From a bacterium (GTDB lineage Bacteria; RBG-13-61-14; DATKZS01), in assembly GCA_963674965.2 (NCBI GenBank), contig CAXXFL010000006.1:608001-672000 (forward strand): 64,000 nucleotides of DNA. Reading direction: 5' to 3'. Below, piece by piece: positions 41,501 through 47,500 of the stretch; the first letter of the stretch is position 1, and every line of letters begins with the position of its first letter. The position numbers were made by a program.

Positions 41501-44500
41501 CCATCGGGCTGATGCTGACGCCCTACCTGGCCACGAAATACGGCATCGAAAAGACCCAGATGATTTACGGCGTCGTCACCGCGGCGTCCTGTGCGCTTTT
41601 CATCGTCCTGGCTCGCGAGAAACCGCCGACCCCGGCCAGCCCGCCCGGCTACGTCGAGAGGGCCCTCATGCTGGACGGACTAAAAATCATGATCAAGACG
41701 CTCGACTTCTGGATATGCATGTTCGTCTTCTTCGTGGGCTTCGGCGTTTTCAACGGATTGGCCACCTGGATCGAGAACATCGTCCGGCCCAAGGGCATGG
41801 ACGTCGGCCAGGCGGGGATGATCGGCGGCCTTCTTCTGATAGGCGGAATACTGGGGGCGTTCGTGATTCCAACCCTTTCGGACAAGCTCGGAAGGCGAAA
41901 GCCCTTCATGCTGGGAGGAATGATTTTGGCCACGCCCGGCCTCGTCGGCTTTACGATTTTCGACTCCTACTCCATGCTCCTGGTTTCGGCGGCGGCGCTG
42001 GGTTTTTTCATGATGGGACTCGGCCCCATCGGATATCAGTACGCGGCCGAGATAACCTATCCCGCTCCAGAGGGCACGTCCAACGGACTCCTGGTGCTGT
42101 CCGGCCAGGTCTCAGTGGTGTTCATCTTCGGCATGGAGGCCATGAACGGAGCCTTCGGCTCATTCACTCCGTCCCTTCTCCTGGGCGTGGCCATGATGGC
42201 GGTCAATTGCCTTCTTATCGCCCTGCTGAAGGAGTCCAAGCTGATCGGGGAATTGCGCGACTGATAAAACGGGCCAGGGTAACGGACGCGCCGTTCGAGT
42301 TATCTGGAAGCCGCGGCCGACGGTCCCGTACGTCGCGGCATGAGTCGCCGCCGTCTCATTGCCATTTCATGAAAAACCGGTTACAGTTCGTTTGTAACCG
42401 ACTTTATCGGCCGTCACCAATCACCATCCTTGTACTTTTCCATTTTCATTGCCGGCGGCCCGAACCGGTCGATCGCCATTTGGGAGGAACCATGAAAAAA
42501 AGTCCGATGTATTCAATTATTTTCGTTATTATTTGCTCGCTATTTTCTATGCCCTCGATTGCCGGCCTCTGCGAGGACGAGGTGCAGACCAGTGAGGGCC
42601 GGGTCGTGGGCCTCGCCTCCGACGCGGCGGCGGCGTGCGCATGGAAAGGAATAAATTACGCGGCCGCGCCGGTTGGAGAGTTGCGGTTCCGTCCGGCCCA
42701 GGCCCCGGAGCCTCGCGATGAGACGTACCAGGCCTACGATTACGGCATGGCCTGCCCCCAGGTGGAGGGCATAACCTCGGGCGGCCACGCCAAGGGGTTT
42801 TCCGAGGACTGCCTGAACCTCAATATCTGGCGTCCCGAGAAGTCGGGCCAGTTCCCGGTCATGTTCTGGATTCACGGCGGCGGCTTCATGCAGGGCACGG
42901 GAAGCTACCAGATGTACGACGGCTCGCGCCTGGCCGCCGAGCGTGACGTGGTGGTGGTGACCATCAACTACCGGCTCGGCCATCTGGGCTGGCTGGCCCT
43001 GCCCGAACTCAAGGCCGAGGACCCGAATGGAGGCGTGGGCAACTACGGACTGACCGACCAGACGCGCGCGCTCGAGTGGGTTAGGCAAAACATCGGGGGC
43101 TTCGGCGGCGACCCGGACAACGTGACGGTCTTCGGCCAGTCGGCCGGGGGCATCAGCATATGCGCGCTGTTAGTAAGTCCACCCGCGAAGGGGCTCTTTG
43201 ACAAGGCCATCGTCATGTCGGGTCCCTGCGACATGATGCTTTCCGAGGAGGAGGCCTACAAGCGCGGGCAAAAGGCCGCGGCCGAGATGGGCTGCGAGGG
43301 TGAGGACCTTATCGAGTGCCTGCGCTCGAGGCCCTTCGAGGAATTCCTCTCGTCCGAGGCGCCCAACCTGCTCATGGAGGGCGGGCCCATCTATTCTCCC
43401 AATTTGGACGGCTACTATATTCCCGACTGGCCGCTAAAGCTGATGGCCGAGGGGAAGTACAGTAAAGTACCGGTAATGGAGGGCTCGACCAAGGAAGAGC
43501 TGAAGATATATACCATTACCAAGTTCGGGCTGGGCACGCTCAGCGAGAAACGGGTGACCAAAATGACCCGCGACCTGGCCGGTCCCTACTCGGACAAGAT
43601 ACTCTCGCTCTACGATTATGACGATTACCGCCGGCCCTTCGACTTGTTCATCGGCTTCGCCACCGACGCGGTGTTCACCTCCCGGGCCTACATGATGGCC
43701 GAGGCGATGGGCGGCCAGAGTGACCTTTACCTTTACCGGTTCGACTGGAACGAGACCCGCATGCCCCACAAGCTGGGGGCCTTCCACGCCCTCGACGTTC
43801 CGCTGGTCTTCAAGGCCCTGGACATGGACATGCCCCTGGCCAAGGTCATCGCCGGAAGAGGGGCCGTGCGGCGCGGGACCCCCCTCTCGGAGCAGATGAT
43901 GAGCTACTACGCCAACTTCGCCCGAACGGGAAACCCCAACGGCGAGGACCTGCCCGAATGGCCGGCCTACGATCGCGCGGCAAAACCCAGGCTCCACCTC
44001 GATACTCCCATCCACCTCGAGAAGATCGGCCCGGAAGAACTGGAGCGTTACGACTACTTCGCCGAGAACGCGCTATACGACATCACCAAGGGGATGCGGG
44101 AGGCCAACAAAAAGCCGTTCTGAGGGCCGGCGTTGCGGGCTTGTCCCGGCAGTGGGACATGTAAAGCGCTTGCGTGGACCGCGGAGTTTCCGAGGCCGCG
44201 GGAAGCGTCCGCCAGAGCAATGTTTCCCGTTCCCCGGATGGGAATTATCGCGCCGCGCTTCCAGCGCTCGATCCGATTTCTTCTCTCATACTCTGAATTT
44301 AGGCCGCGGCCAGCGGGCGCAGGATTCCCCAGCCCCAAAGGGGCGTCCGTCTAAAGCCCAGGGTGACAACCCTGGGGTAATAAGTATATAATATATCGCT
44401 ATAGCCCCACAGGGGCGGCGCAAAGGAAACAATATGGCCCAGTCCCTTACGCATAACGTCATTCATCTCGTCTTCAGCACCAAAGAAAGATACCCTTTTA

Positions 44501-47500
44501 TATCTAAAGACGTAAGAGAGGGCCTTAACGCCTATATCGTGGGCGTTATAAAAAGAACGAATGCCATTCAATTATTACGGGGTCCGTGGAAGACCATGTC
44601 CACGTCCTTTTCATCCTTTCCAAGAACCGGGCCTTGAAGGACGTGGTCAGAGAGATAAAAGCAGGCTCTTCAAGATGGATAAGAGAGAAAATCTAGAAGT
44701 TCAATTGGCAGGGAGGTTATAGCGCTTTCTCAGTTAGCCAGTCCAACGTGGAGGCGGTGAAAAATTACATACGGAACCAGGAGCAGCATCATAAAACCAT
44801 TTCCTTCAAGGAGGAATTAAAAAAACTTCTCGCCAAACACCGCGTCGAGTTCGATGAGAATTATCTGTGGGATTGAAGCGCCGCCCTTACAGGGCCGGTG
44901 GGATTATTATTGATTATCCATCCCAGGGCTTCGCCCTGGGCTATAGACCTTGCGCCCTTGCAGGGCGTAAAGAATATCTTGCCATCTTCCCGAGGGGCCG
45001 TCCTTATTTTTTCTTCTTCCTGGCTTTTCTGGATTTCTTCTGTTGTTTGCGCTTGTTCTTTCTGGCCTTCTCGGCGTTTTGCCGTGGTCTTTTCGCGTGG
45101 CCGGACGGATTGAAGAACATGCCCATGTCGCCGCCGCTTTTCTTTTTAGGAGGAACGTCGGAAAGACCCATATTGAAAAGTACCGCGTCCAACTCTCCGC
45201 AGACGCCGGGAAAAACGTGGCCCGCCTCGTAGGCTTCCTTGATAAGTTGCTCCGCCTCGACGGCCTCGAGGTCCATCAAATACCAAACGAGGTGGCCGTT
45301 AAACTCGGGGTCGTTTTGCTCGTGCATGGAAAGGCGCCTTATGAAAATATCCTTTATTTTCGGGACGGTCTCGGGGTAGCGTTGGGTAAACCGCATTAAA
45401 ATCTCACCGGCCGAAAGCCTTGTAGAGAAGTTCGGGGCGTCGGTCATGAAGAATTCCATCGTGGGCTGAAGAGCGCCTTTTCCTATCAAGGTGAAGACCC
45501 GGGGAAAATCATCGCTCGCGTACTCGTCCATAATCTCGTCGAGGGGCGCTAAAAGCTCGAGAAGCGGCGCGATCGCCTCCTCGGCTTTCAGGACCGCGAG
45601 AGTTCTCCAGGCGTGGACGGGAGCCCAGACGGCGTCATCCTCGGGGTCTCCCTGGTGAAGCTCCATGTCCTGGGCCATGCGGATAAGCTCGGGAACGTGC
45701 TCCGAGGTGAAGCCGAAATCCAGGTATTCATACCAGTCGTCCATGTCCCCGGCGTCTCCAAAGGTCAACAACCTCGCGACGGGTTCTATATAATTGGAAC
45801 TTGACACCATGCCTCCTTTGTTATCCGACGCGCGTCGAATAATTCCAGACCCAGAATTTTATCCGGTTTTCGGCAAAAATGAAACCGAGTCATGGCCCGC
45901 GACCTTTCCTCGAGGACGGGGACAACCAACCTCGTCTCGCGGTCCGAAATTATCCTCTCGTCCCGAATTGACGTTTGTTTATAGTTGCATTACTATCCGC
46001 TGGAAAGGAGGCGCGTTATGAAAGGAAAAGAGAAAAAGTTCGAGAAGACACTCCCCGTGGAGGAGGCCTGTTCATTGGTGGCGACCCTGGCCTCTGGCCT
46101 CAGGGGCGAGGCGGCCGGGCAATTGGAGGGACTCGAGATCGACCTTAAGGACTTCACCAGCCTTAAGATGAGCCTGGAGAGAAAAAACGACCTTATCGCC
46201 ATCAAGCTTAAAGTGAAAACCGCCCAGGCGAAGGAGAAAAGCCATCGAGCCAAAAACGCTTCCCCGAAAGAGGAAAAATCGAAGGAGATCGGGGACAACT
46301 CCGACGGCAACGGCCTTCCCGATTACAAGAAGCTCAAGAAGCGCATGAAGAAGTCCTTCAAGGCCCTATCCTCAAGCGCCAGGGAAGGCTCCCTCCCGGA
46401 CGAGAAGGTGCTCGGCGCCTTTATCGAGGACTCGGGCATCATGGTCCAGTACCCCGACAAGGGCGAGGAATTCTACGAGGAGTACAAATCCTCCGTCACC
46501 GAGTTGGACCAGGCCTTCAAACAAAGCGACCTAATAAAATTCCAGGCGGCCGTGGACGCCCTCAACAAGATACAAAAGAAAAGCCACGAGAAGTACAAGT
46601 GATTCAGATATCGATCAATTAATATAATGCTCCCCCATGTCGGCGGATAAGGTCGGCGGTCTGGTCTTTTTCAAGGTCCGGGACCATCTTGAGTGGAGTA
46701 TTAAGTTCATTATCTCCGGCGTTGACTTTTGCTCCACTGGATATAAGAAAAGCGGCAAGGTCCGTATCATCGATTAACGCCGCGTAATGCAGGGGAGTCT
46801 CTCCGCGTTTGTCCTTGGCGTTTACGTCGGCCCCTTTGGCGATTAATGCCTTGGCCGCTTCCACGTCCCCTTGCAAAGAGGCAACATGCAGAGGAGTCAA
46901 CCCACCATCATCGGCCGCGTTTACCCTGGCTCCTCTCTTGATGAGCATGGCCATTATTTCATGGCCGTTGGAGCCGCGCGCTTTGTGTAATGGCGTCTGG
47001 CCTCTATTGTTTTGCGCGTTCACGTCCGAGCCCCGTGATATGAGGAAATCAACCAATTCCGCGTTCCCAAAGTAAGCGGCCATATGGAGTAAAGTGTTTC
47101 CCGAGAGGTCTCGCGTCTTGATTCTTTTTGGAGAGCGCTCAATAAACTTCTTGACTTTGTTTGCCCTCCCCTTCGCAATTTCCGAAAAAACGCCGCCGCC
47201 GGCTCCAGCCGATTCAATAAGTTCAATTATATCATCGGCATAAGCGTCCGCCGCGATATCCATGGCGTCACTTCCATTATCGTTCTTGGCTTTAATATCC
47301 GCCCCATGTTCAATGAGGATTCTAACCACTTCTTTTCGACCCTCAAAATTGGTCAGATGGAAAGTGAATGACCGATGAATATAGATAAGGGGCGTGTCTC
47401 CATCATTATTTCTCGCGTTGATATCAGCCCCCGCTCTCAGAATGAGTTCCACCGCCGTCGGATGGCCCTCATTGGATGCCAGGTGTAATGGCCTGTTCCC

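Follow-up and report, generated by a model that had tools for sequence, protein, structure and literature searches.

Acido-Lenti-1 as part of a three-hairpin DNA repeat associated with TnpA-Y1 subclass 1.2 genes

Described Y1 systems and the Acido-Lenti-1 motif

The enzymes of TnpA-Y1 subclass 1.2 carry the motifs DH[IV]H, WQ and Y---Q--HH, are ~148-151 aa long with a C-terminal domain of ~30 residues, and occur in low copy number and with low within-genome identity; in the sections of Quentin et al. 2018 (PMC6006769) that treat them, they are published as lacking REPs or IS ends and as not described by Bertels. IS200 Group 3 is, in the relevant sections of Bertels, Gallie, and Rainey 2017 (PMC5581495), a RAYT-like IS200 group with no duplicates, no members on plasmids and abundant flanking 16-mers, the repeat itself being left undescribed there, and a reply letter by Bertels et al. 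classes it among families expected to differ in function from the REPIN-associated ones. All three features recur in the genes studied here; of earlier work, this group comes closest to hinting at a cognate repeat, and we infer its identity with subclass 1.2.

The REP/RAYT kind of system (REPtrons, with REP, REPIN, or BIME repeats and the RAYT enzyme TnpA-REP) is already well known. As far as the cited parts of Nunvar 2010 (PMC2817692) and Corneloup 2021 (PMC8266576) go, inverted hairpin repeats with an AG-ending tetranucleotide at the 5′ foot flank the gene, the repeats are dispersed as inverted doublets and arrays in gene-specific variants, and the genes are low-copy and divergent. The system described below shares these traits, but its enzyme belongs to class 1 (Y---Q), whereas RAYTs belong to class 2 (Y---NP); its foot is NNAG, in contrast to GT[AG]G in REP; and its repeat comprises three hairpins with purine-rich triloops. 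TIRtrons also resemble it, in that Y1 (TIRYT) genes are flanked by long inverted repeats with partial self-complementarity, which additionally occur as dimers and clusters, Acidobacteria included (Di Nocera et al. 2013, PMC3733652, in the parts cited). However, all 26 TIRYT examples are class 2 (2.1, 2.2, and 2.5) in the corresponding passage of Quentin et al. (PMC6006769), and the class-2 genes tested here were without the repeat (0/8), the GGGGWSAS motif of TIRtrons not being part of this comparison. IS200/IS605 elements of subclass 1.1 (IS608, ISDra2) share with our genes the NCBIfam name, the closest structures and a guide tetranucleotide 5′ of a hairpin, but elements of this type are multi-copy and ~99% identical within genomes, with distinct left and right ends on one strand and no TIRs, none of which was found here.

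Rfam RF01687 (Acido-Lenti-1) is filed as an sRNA of no known function, and its entry in the original table (Weinberg et al. 2010, PMC2864571) bears none of the flags 'tson', 'rep', or 'DNA?'. We found that the motif is structured DNA flanking the genes of this Y1 family and is specifically associated with subclass 1.2, contrary to the absence of REPs and IS ends published for that subclass. Two orphans are thereby joined, and in the literature searched (Additional files 1 and 3 of Weinberg 2010 and the supplements of a 2026 preprint lay outside its scope) no link between the motif and subclass 1.2 enzymes was found. We consider it probable that the three-hairpin repeat is the cognate repeat of subclass 1.2, the two jointly forming a REPtron/REPIN-like system. 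For annotators, RF01687 matches are thus probably DNA repeats.

The window locus and its enzyme class

An Rfam scan over the whole window (the 64,000-nt stretch analysed here, to which all positions refer) yielded two RF01687 matches, at 44331-44376 on the minus strand (43.0 bits, above the 37-bit cut-off) and at 44922-44967 on the plus strand (32.3 bits, below it), and one other match only, to U6 at E 0.39. As the first-pass annotation had stated, the two point outward around a broken Y1/HUH gene (44434-44876, plus strand), and its description of that gene as a frameshifted transposase was borne out by a frame change near 44555-44580 and an in-frame stop at 44694-44696. Despite this breakage, the gene retains the DHVH, WQ, and Y-x-x-x-Q-x-x-HH motifs, with HUH at 44595-44603 and the catalytic Tyr codon at 44766-44768, and it is a dead copy of TnpA-Y1 subclass 1.2.

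The left unit, read on the plus strand, comprises an outer short hairpin, A_out (44332-44344; 5-bp stem and 3-nt loop, the second stem of the RF01687 match), the tetranucleotide AAAG (44353-44356) as the NNAG foot and candidate guide on the 5′ side of hairpin B, the long hairpin B itself (44357-44376, CCCAGGG..CCCTGGG), and an inner short hairpin, A_in (44404-44416), that is absent from the Rfam model. The right unit, on the minus strand, mirrors this order, with A_in at 44883-44895, hairpin B at 44922-44940 (C-GAA-G loop on that strand), the foot ATAG at 44941-44944, and A_out at 44954-44966. On either strand, folding of both ends was much stronger than that of shuffled sequences (z -2.3 to -4.4), and folding energy singled out neither strand, the plus strand being the stronger at both.

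Outside the element, a carboxylesterase gene (42504-44123, plus strand, start approximate; PF00135, E 1e-111) and a 268-aa ORF with no Pfam match (45004-45810, minus strand) converge on it. Because the element lies between convergent genes, parts of it may be transcribed, and a promoter-like site occurs in the left unit facing the gene (44363-44392, plus strand; GTGACA-18-TATAAT, 11/12, a consensus match only, with one such site found against 0.7 expected in shuffles), with A_in in the leader. These points, together with the covariation (COV flag) in the original alignment (Weinberg 2010, PMC2864571, tabulated entry), would suit a motif acting mainly as RNA, either a small RNA or an mRNA 3′/5′ structure, with the link to the gene reflecting regulation of the transposase transcript. 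We find this reading quite improbable: covariation cannot distinguish RNA from single-stranded DNA, the motif's entry in the original table contains no evidence of transcription, and the strand signals and arrangements described below speak against an RNA.

By its motifs, as set out in Table 1 of Quentin, the enzyme is placed in subclass 1.2 and not in IS200 proper (subclass 1.1). The residues H55, H57, W95, Q96, Y115, Q119, H122, and H123 are invariant in 24 related proteins, and every feature tested for the subclass was found: the motifs, the length (140-155 aa in 70 intact related proteins) with a C-terminal tail (the protein profile continues for ~26 positions where the IS200 structure matches have stopped), low copy number (1-7 matches per genome), and low identity (34-82% between within-genome paralogues in 35 pairs, 15 of these in one complete chromosome). 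All proteins have Y---Q and not the Y---NP of RAYTs, and the best match to NF047646 had E 7e-12, member 1 reaching 26 of the 80 bits required; the E. coli TnpA-REP structure was not reached by structure search even at E 10.

An alternative is to read the elements as mobile insertion sequences of the ordinary IS200-like type, with the motif as a fixed terminal hairpin and the doublets as simple internal-deletion derivatives. All 24 tested proteins match NCBIfam IS200/IS605 at E<=0.001, the closest solved structures are IS200/IS605 TnpAs (IS608, ISDra2; E ~1e-14), and the window gene has a GC content of 45% vs 58% for the window, all of which would agree with that reading. However, no near-identical gene copies were found in any one genome, the maximum being 82% with single-contig chromosomes included, although short-read assemblies may collapse identical copies. 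The balance of the evidence, completed below by the distribution of the genes, makes this alternative unlikely.

The three-hairpin repeat and its association with the gene

Acido-Lenti-1 corresponds to the outer two-thirds of a DNA repeat of ~85-100 nt with three hairpins. On the strand opposite Rfam's, the unit consists of A_out, a linker of 12-13 nt that ends in NNAG, hairpin B, a variable spacer of 21-26 nt, and A_in; the Rfam model covers B and A_out, omits A_in and misses long-B variants. In the Rfam consensus, stem 1 is followed by a conserved CU, to which the NNAG foot is complementary. A perfect inner hairpin turned up in 114 of the 159 half-units on the gene side, vs a mean of 2.0 in shuffles. 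The foot read GTAG in only 24 of 318 units, CCAG, ATAG, and TCAG being commoner (the finder requires AG).

Stem mismatches on the AG-foot strand were G·T rather than A·C by 33:4 and 18:0 in two sets, with a weaker bias of 11:6 in the motif-first set, and outer loops read cUUCGg on Rfam's strand in only 47/318 cases, vs GNA on the opposite strand in 169/318. Since both mismatches and loop types favour it, the working strand is likely the one opposite Rfam's, and the match of the Rfam model (PMC2864571) to B and A_out would then be drawn on the non-working strand. The sRNA label, which the first-pass annotation had challenged, is probably wrong as a primary role. The miRNA-family matches that appeared in Rfam scans were taken as chance matches to long hairpins.

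We examined 80 loci of related genes, selected independently of the 80 in the first-pass annotation, with a structure-based finder. A unit adjoined 73/80 genes, vs 7/145 distal windows and 9/308 shuffled windows, counts that are partly circular because the finder was designed on these same loci and demands an AG foot, and that include related, non-independent genomes. With Rfam alone, 39/80 loci had an RF01687 match (E<=0.1) no more than 400 bp away, comparable to the 41/80 reported earlier, and 16 had a match over the cut-off. The bracket of an upstream minus-strand and a downstream plus-strand match, earlier given as 18/80, was not reproduced by Rfam alone (8/80 at E<=0.1 and 12/80 at E<=10 within 150 bp, for different loci and a different distance); the structure-based finder placed outward brackets at 33/80 loci, with other orientations common. 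Of 16 further gene loci, 7 had no unit by the strict finder, and one gene from Bacteroidota is accompanied by short inverted hairpins but lacks B. The ends of the Bacteroidota copies gave no match at E<=1 to another Rfam motif such as Flavo-1.

The association is specific to the subclass. In five genomes, a unit adjoined 15/16 subclass-1.2 genes, 0/8 class-2 (RAYT-like) genes, and 0/3 divergent class-1 genes (L325 and L327, with no ORF called, were left out, and L335 and L339 were counted as one gene), and class-2 Y1 motifs were found near 0/80 motif-first loci. Overall, the repeat flanks most subclass-1.2 genes in PVC, Acidobacteriota, the lineage of the window, and one Bacteroidota replicon, and the top-scoring gene-adjacent matches seen (59-62.5 bits) are tandem arrays around intact subclass-1.2 genes. 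Among 140 genomes of one class, 41 had both gene and motif, 4 the gene only, 16 the motif only, and 79 neither, the gene being present in 18/21 genomes with at least 10 motif matches; the corresponding numbers for 120 genomes of the phylum were 6, 5, 3, and 106.

Furthermore, repeat and gene change together. The two ends of one gene have a similarity of 0.82, vs 0.52 between ends of different genes; a gene's own other end is the best match in 24/31 cases, end similarity tracks protein identity, and every gene comes with a repeat variant of its own, which recurs in dispersed doublets without a gene and in tandem arrays. The near-fixed distance of units from the gene on both sides, the likeness of a gene's two ends and their change along with the protein argue against a repeat owned by other machinery (DDE MITEs, host proteins) in or beside which subclass-1.2 genes insert as into a preferred target. 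In favour of that view, the gene was not found in 16/57 motif-positive genomes, many units lack a cognate gene, and doublets were amplified within two unrelated MITE families, which are considered below; all told, we hold it to be very improbable.

Dispersed copies, mobility and a proposed mechanism

Gene pairs at least 80% identical had different neighbours in 55/62 cases, homology ended at A_out where inspected, and one lineage has copies in direct orientation around the gene, like IS200 ends. All of this would fit ordinary insertion sequences, against which stand six pairs from different species, 90-99% identical, that keep both flanks; the genes thus stay in place between some close species and are relocated between others. 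Only 2 full-length matches were found in 72,556 plasmids, a set in which these phyla may be thinly represented, and both lie on 0.6-Mb replicons; the second gene of G000 had no plasmid match at 1e-25, and a phage collection gave 2 weak matches only. Moreover, unit copy number varies, and orientation is inverted (the commonest), direct tandem, or inward, whereas IS200/IS605 elements are without terminal inverted repeats (Nunvar 2010, PMC2817692, in the part cited).

Because orientation varies, paralogues are only 34-82% identical and most copies (75/80) lie away from genes, we favour a REP/RAYT-like behaviour. In the motif-first set (80 of 130 stretches), a gene was nearby in only 5/80 loci. 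The 66-153-bp tandem arrays, with tens to >100 matches per genome, along with the inverted pairs, disagree with a primarily RNA motif. The first-pass annotation had taken the motif as the terminal hairpin of IS200-like Y1 transposons; the link to the Y1 family held, but the enzyme is of subclass 1.2, not IS200 proper, the motif covers two of three hairpins, and its varying orientation and many gene-less copies do not describe a fixed IS terminus.

By analogy with the IS608/ISDra2 TnpAs and TnpA-REP, the HUH/Tyr enzyme of the proposed REPtron-like system would bind the folded single strand that carries the AG foot, use NNAG as a guide, nick close to the outer side of A_out (C|T being a possible site) via a 5′-phosphotyrosine, and rejoin the strands. 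Such cutting and rejoining would multiply units, in the form of doublets and arrays, and occasionally move the gene itself. The link between motif and enzyme supplies a candidate substrate, strand, and guide, and the activity is therefore testable using short oligonucleotides. IS200 elements proper insert 3′ of a fixed target tetra- or pentanucleotide and produce no TSD; in 424 units, we found no fixed motif outside A_out, only pyrimidine enrichment; CT peaked at 52/424 at one position, vs about 12-36 elsewhere, too weak to be called a cleavage motif. No excision joint, empty site, or conserved cleavage or target motif was found in the relatives' genomes, read contigs, and 424 units: 31 genomes contained no syntenic copy of the locus (query, window 43300-46000) and hence gave no informative comparison, and contigs from three read runs of one study contained no joint skipping the element, a blank rather than evidence.

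More tentatively, subclass 1.2 could represent a second, independent IS200 domestication, or a living IS200-RAYT intermediate, a possibility to which we give somewhat less than even weight. In this case, a HUH enzyme retained by the host would maintain a population of three-hairpin ssDNA repeats of its own. A genome would contain several enzyme/repeat pairs orthogonal to one another, the choice of cut site might depend on the variable NNAG guide, and the short hairpins on either side would serve as additional recognition elements of a sort not seen in REPs. What Rfam lists as an abundant 'sRNA' family would be this repeat population, modelled on the wrong strand. The system is relevant to the question of whether domestication of IS200 enzymes happened a single time or repeatedly.

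The gene-less doublets, earlier cited as short non-autonomous derivatives, do exist, but 7 of the 9 outward pairs among the matches listed for G004 are passengers of MITEs. This genome has 47 matches at E<=0.01 and, with one query, no Y1 gene was found in it. These 7/9 near-identical doublets are embedded in a larger MITE that has TIRs and target duplications of its own, so the number of copies cannot be taken as a sign of mobilisation by Y1. A G000 family with 11 full-length copies likewise carries doublets inside TIR/TSD MITEs; its short members, considered as empty sites, were rejected as internal deletions that keep the outer hairpins. The two families have different TIRs, and their target duplications also differ in length (6-7 vs 8-10 bp), which means that neither can account for the motif across phyla; the doublets of G032 and G003 share no outer flanks. 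Both points weigh against ownership of the repeat by such machinery. Sampled units of G032, a genome with several paralogues and repeat variants, had a matching gene end in 15/37 cases and none in 22/37; these cognate units conform to the REPtron pattern of a gene flanked by hairpin repeats that recur genome-wide as doublets and arrays.

The earlier report of an intact bracketed copy and 11 outward pairs in a relative was confirmed as a pattern, in the genome that is G003, not G007, in our numbering (89 matches); its doublets match the ends of its gene poorly (0.4-0.8). Intact subclass-1.2 genes include those at G003 C41:11063-11512 and G000 C6:230376-230825. The genome of the window itself holds 29 RF01687 matches at E<=10, only one of them above the cut-off, and an intact paralogue elsewhere with a different B stem.

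Three-hairpin ends around a broken Y1 gene

Scanned with Rfam over its full length, the window gave two matches to Acido-Lenti-1 (RF01687; cut-off 37 bits), at 44331-44376 (-, 43.0 bits) and 44922-44967 (+, 32.3 bits), and no further match of weight. The first-pass annotation had described such a pair bracketing a broken transposase gene, and this is confirmed: the two are separated by a Y1/HUH gene (44434-44876) whose reading frame changes near 44555-44580 and meets a stop at 44694-44696. Its pieces weakly match IS200/IS605 and REP-associated models. The gene has a GC content of 45% versus 58% for the window, and its two neighbours, a carboxylesterase gene and a 268-aa ORF, both converge on the element. 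Judged from translation only, an adenylate/guanylate-cyclase-like ORF (39583-40881, +) and an ankyrin-repeat-like ORF (46619-48502, -) lie nearby.

Two hairpins are not enough to describe the ends of this element. Each end carries three, in the order 13-nt outer hairpin (A_out), linker ending in NNAG, long hairpin (B), spacer and 13-nt inner hairpin (A_in) adjoining the gene; the Rfam model covers B and A_out. At the left end, A_in is immediately 5' of the ribosome-binding site, and a near-consensus sigma-70 promoter (44363-44392, +), its -35 box formed by the loop of hairpin B, suggests by consensus match that the left unit would also drive the Y1 gene.

Of 281 confirmed loci with related genes, the best 80 were compared; Rfam matches at E<=0.1 were present within 400 bp at 39, matches over the cut-off at 16 and an outward bracket within 150 bp at eight; variants with an extended B are missed by the model. 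A structure-based finder placed a three-hairpin unit at 73 of these loci, at both ends of 45 and as an outward bracket at 33 (controls: 7/145 distal and 9/308 shuffled windows), counts that are partly circular because the finder was designed on the same loci, demands an AG-type foot and makes a few loose calls. The third hairpin is real, being found in 114 of 159 half-units versus a mean of 2.0 after shuffling. The linker measures 12-13 nt in 403/424 units and the spacer mostly 21-26 nt, and units occur in outward, inward and direct tandem orientation.

Association of the repeat with subclass 1.2 enzymes

The encoded proteins show DHVH, WQ and Y---Q--HH motifs, invariant across 24 relatives, which with a length of ~150 aa and a C-terminal tail agree with what Table 1 of Quentin et al. 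2018 (PMC6006769) gives for TnpA-Y1 subclass 1.2. The available portions of that paper describe the subclass as 'REP: no', low copy, not IS-like and generally without IS200 end structures. The label 'IS200-like' is explained by matches of all 24 to the NCBIfam IS200/IS605 model and by the solved structures nearest to them, which are those of IS200/IS605 TnpAs.

The repeat is specific to this subclass. In a PF01797 search of five genomes (30 of 54 matches taken, two of these loci without an ORF), a unit lay within 350 bp of 15/16 subclass 1.2 genes, 0/8 class 2 genes and 0/3 more divergent class 1 genes. Speaking against a universal association, a strict finder gave no unit at 7 of 16 additional gene loci. 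In a set of 140 genomes from one class, gene and motif occurred together in 41, the gene alone in four, the motif alone in 16 and neither in 79, and the gene was present in 18 of the 21 genomes with at least 10 matches; the corresponding counts for 120 genomes of the phylum were 6, 5, 3 and 106, to be read as those of overlapping sets with non-independent kin, many incomplete genomes and only 40-46 candidates scored per genome. In genomes G170 and G162, intact genes are surrounded by direct tandem arrays made up of the top-scoring matches seen next to any gene (59-62.5 bits).

Gene and repeat are also cognate. The two ends of one gene have a similarity of 0.82 versus 0.52 to the ends of other genes, the own end being the best match in 24/31 cases, and end similarity climbs with protein identity, from 0.50 below 60% to 0.81 above 80%. 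In genome G032, a resident gene with matching ends (>=0.8) exists for 15 of the 37 dispersed units sampled and not for the other 22. 

The window's genome (G000) holds an intact second subclass 1.2 gene of 148 aa with inverted three-hairpin ends (C6:230376-230825, -; locus L320), whose B stem, CCGTAGG..CCTACGG, is matched by gene-less units at several other sites of the genome. A more divergent class 1 group, ~30% identical (C1:1589600-1589998 in the same genome, L324; L106 in G003; L165 in G032), has its own multi-hairpin inverted flanks without an RF01687 match and may be a sister system of enzyme and repeat. The two Bacteroidota replicons differ: the full set of inverted three-hairpin ends is present in one, whereas the other has short hairpins only, without B. 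A Bacteroidota subclass 1.2 gene at L366 (NZ_CP147018.1, 478467-478934) has inverted short-hairpin repeats, no B hairpin and no Rfam match; after the repeats comes a conserved AT-rich stretch that ends in GTAG.

Copy number, mobility and comparison with known systems

TIRs and target duplications are a hallmark of DDE-type MITEs. The genome counts of the first-pass annotation were roughly reproduced (47 matches and nine outward pairs in G004; in G003, an intact bracketed gene together with 89 matches and 11 pairs). In G004, seven of the nine pairs lie inside a 268-299-bp element (L107-L112 and L114) with its own ~20-bp TIRs and 6-7-bp flanking duplications, mostly ANNNNT. In G000, a doublet sits inside a 421-431-bp element with TIRs unlike those of G004 (11 full-length copies among 13 examined; sites of the family include C2:354215, C2:749171, C1:14066, C1:291206 and C6:78858), with 8-10-bp duplications in 7/13 copies and two copies internally deleted between hairpins. 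This three-hairpin doublet has the B stem of the intact paralogue; that of G004 is a different one and a second case of hitch-hiking. Since these doublets sit in DDE-type MITE-like elements, their copy numbers are uninformative on Y1 activity. Four other G000 doublets (C3:164755, C3:316153, C2:323996 and C7:894656), 95-99% identical, have long flanking sequences in common with another palindromic repeat family that is abundant in that genome. The doublets of G003 and G032 have unrelated outer flanks, variable spacers and conserved hairpins, as expected of REPIN-like units.

Gene pairs within a genome are 34-82% identical (n=35, 15 of them in one single-contig chromosome), whereas true IS200 copies average 99% in the accessible text of Quentin et al. 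2018. Among 62 gene pairs at least 80% identical, both neighbours were kept across species in six and no flank was shared in 55; in those inspected of the latter, homology ends at most a few bases from A_out. Among 72,556 plasmid records, only two gave a full-length hit at E<=4e-29, each of them a replicon of 0.6 Mb, and a subclass 1.2 fragment lay within 800 bp at 5/80 listed metagenome motif loci (80 of 130 found). At L076 and L085, from two species, the start of the gene abuts the end of one and the same upstream ORF and no unit lies upstream, the context being kept.

The gene is thus low-copy, partly vertically kept and occasionally relocated, with a cognate dispersed repeat, as in REPtrons (Nunvar 2010, PMC2817692, as far as accessible). 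The earlier proposal that the 'sRNA' is the terminal hairpin of IS200-like transposons is partly supported, in that the repeat is linked to a Y1 family, but the identical copies and fixed ends of IS200 are absent. Acido-Lenti-1 is very probably a DNA repeat of subclass 1.2 Y1 enzymes and, by analogy, would work like REP/REPIN, although it does not conform to RAYT systems in Y---NP or GTAG. TIRtrons (Di Nocera 2013, PMC3733652, in the sections available) share the layout and belong to class 2. The closest earlier pointer is to IS200 Group 3, which according to the accessible part of Bertels 2017 (PMC5581495) lacks both duplicates and plasmid copies and has flanking 16-mers that are abundant; we infer its identity with subclass 1.2. 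A literature search, mainly outside subscription journals, found no publication linking Acido-Lenti-1/RF01687 to a transposase and no repeat described for subclass 1.2. In their available portions, one 2026 preprint (10.64898/2026.10.21.760802) calls the RF01687 family 'abundant ... of unknown function' and another (10.64898/2026.02.09.704811) suggests that it regulates protease genes.

Strand bias and predicted mechanism

DNA hairpins are stabilised by GNA triloops and RNA hairpins by cUUCGg. On the strand with NNAG at the 5' foot of B (the AG-foot strand, the complement of the one Rfam models), G·T outnumbers A·C among stem mismatches by 33:4 and, in a second set, 18:0, with a weaker 11:6 in the motif-first set; GNA accounts for 169 of the 318 outer loops on this strand, and only 47 would be cUUCGg on Rfam's, counts that are tendencies and not probabilities because the sequences are related. 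The folding energy of the window's own two ends favours neither strand decisively. In the portions available, the text of Weinberg 2010 (PMC2864571) notes the cUUCGg stabilisation, and its summary table gives the motif no flag beyond 'COV nc' and makes no mention of transcription, a transposon or DNA.

By analogy with TnpA-REP and IS608 (Corneloup 2021, PMC8266576, as far as accessible), the enzyme would bind the folded AG-foot strand, be guided by the tetranucleotide that lies 5' of B, nick via a phosphotyrosine and rejoin the strands; should the AG rule of REPs apply, the nick would fall at C|T. Such nicking and rejoining would spread doublets and arrays and at times relocate the gene. No fixed motif was found outside A_out in 424 units, and no empty site in relatives, reads or MITE variants.

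In G042 (C8:54658-58796; L350), units repeating every ~153 bp form a tandem array of ~4 kb around the gene, resembling BIME-2 arrays. At a further locus, L396, a group II intron domain V/VI match (1348-1424, -, 57.7 bits) adjoins a motif array. The motif may be linked to group II introns, and hairpin-targeting introns could explain such a link.
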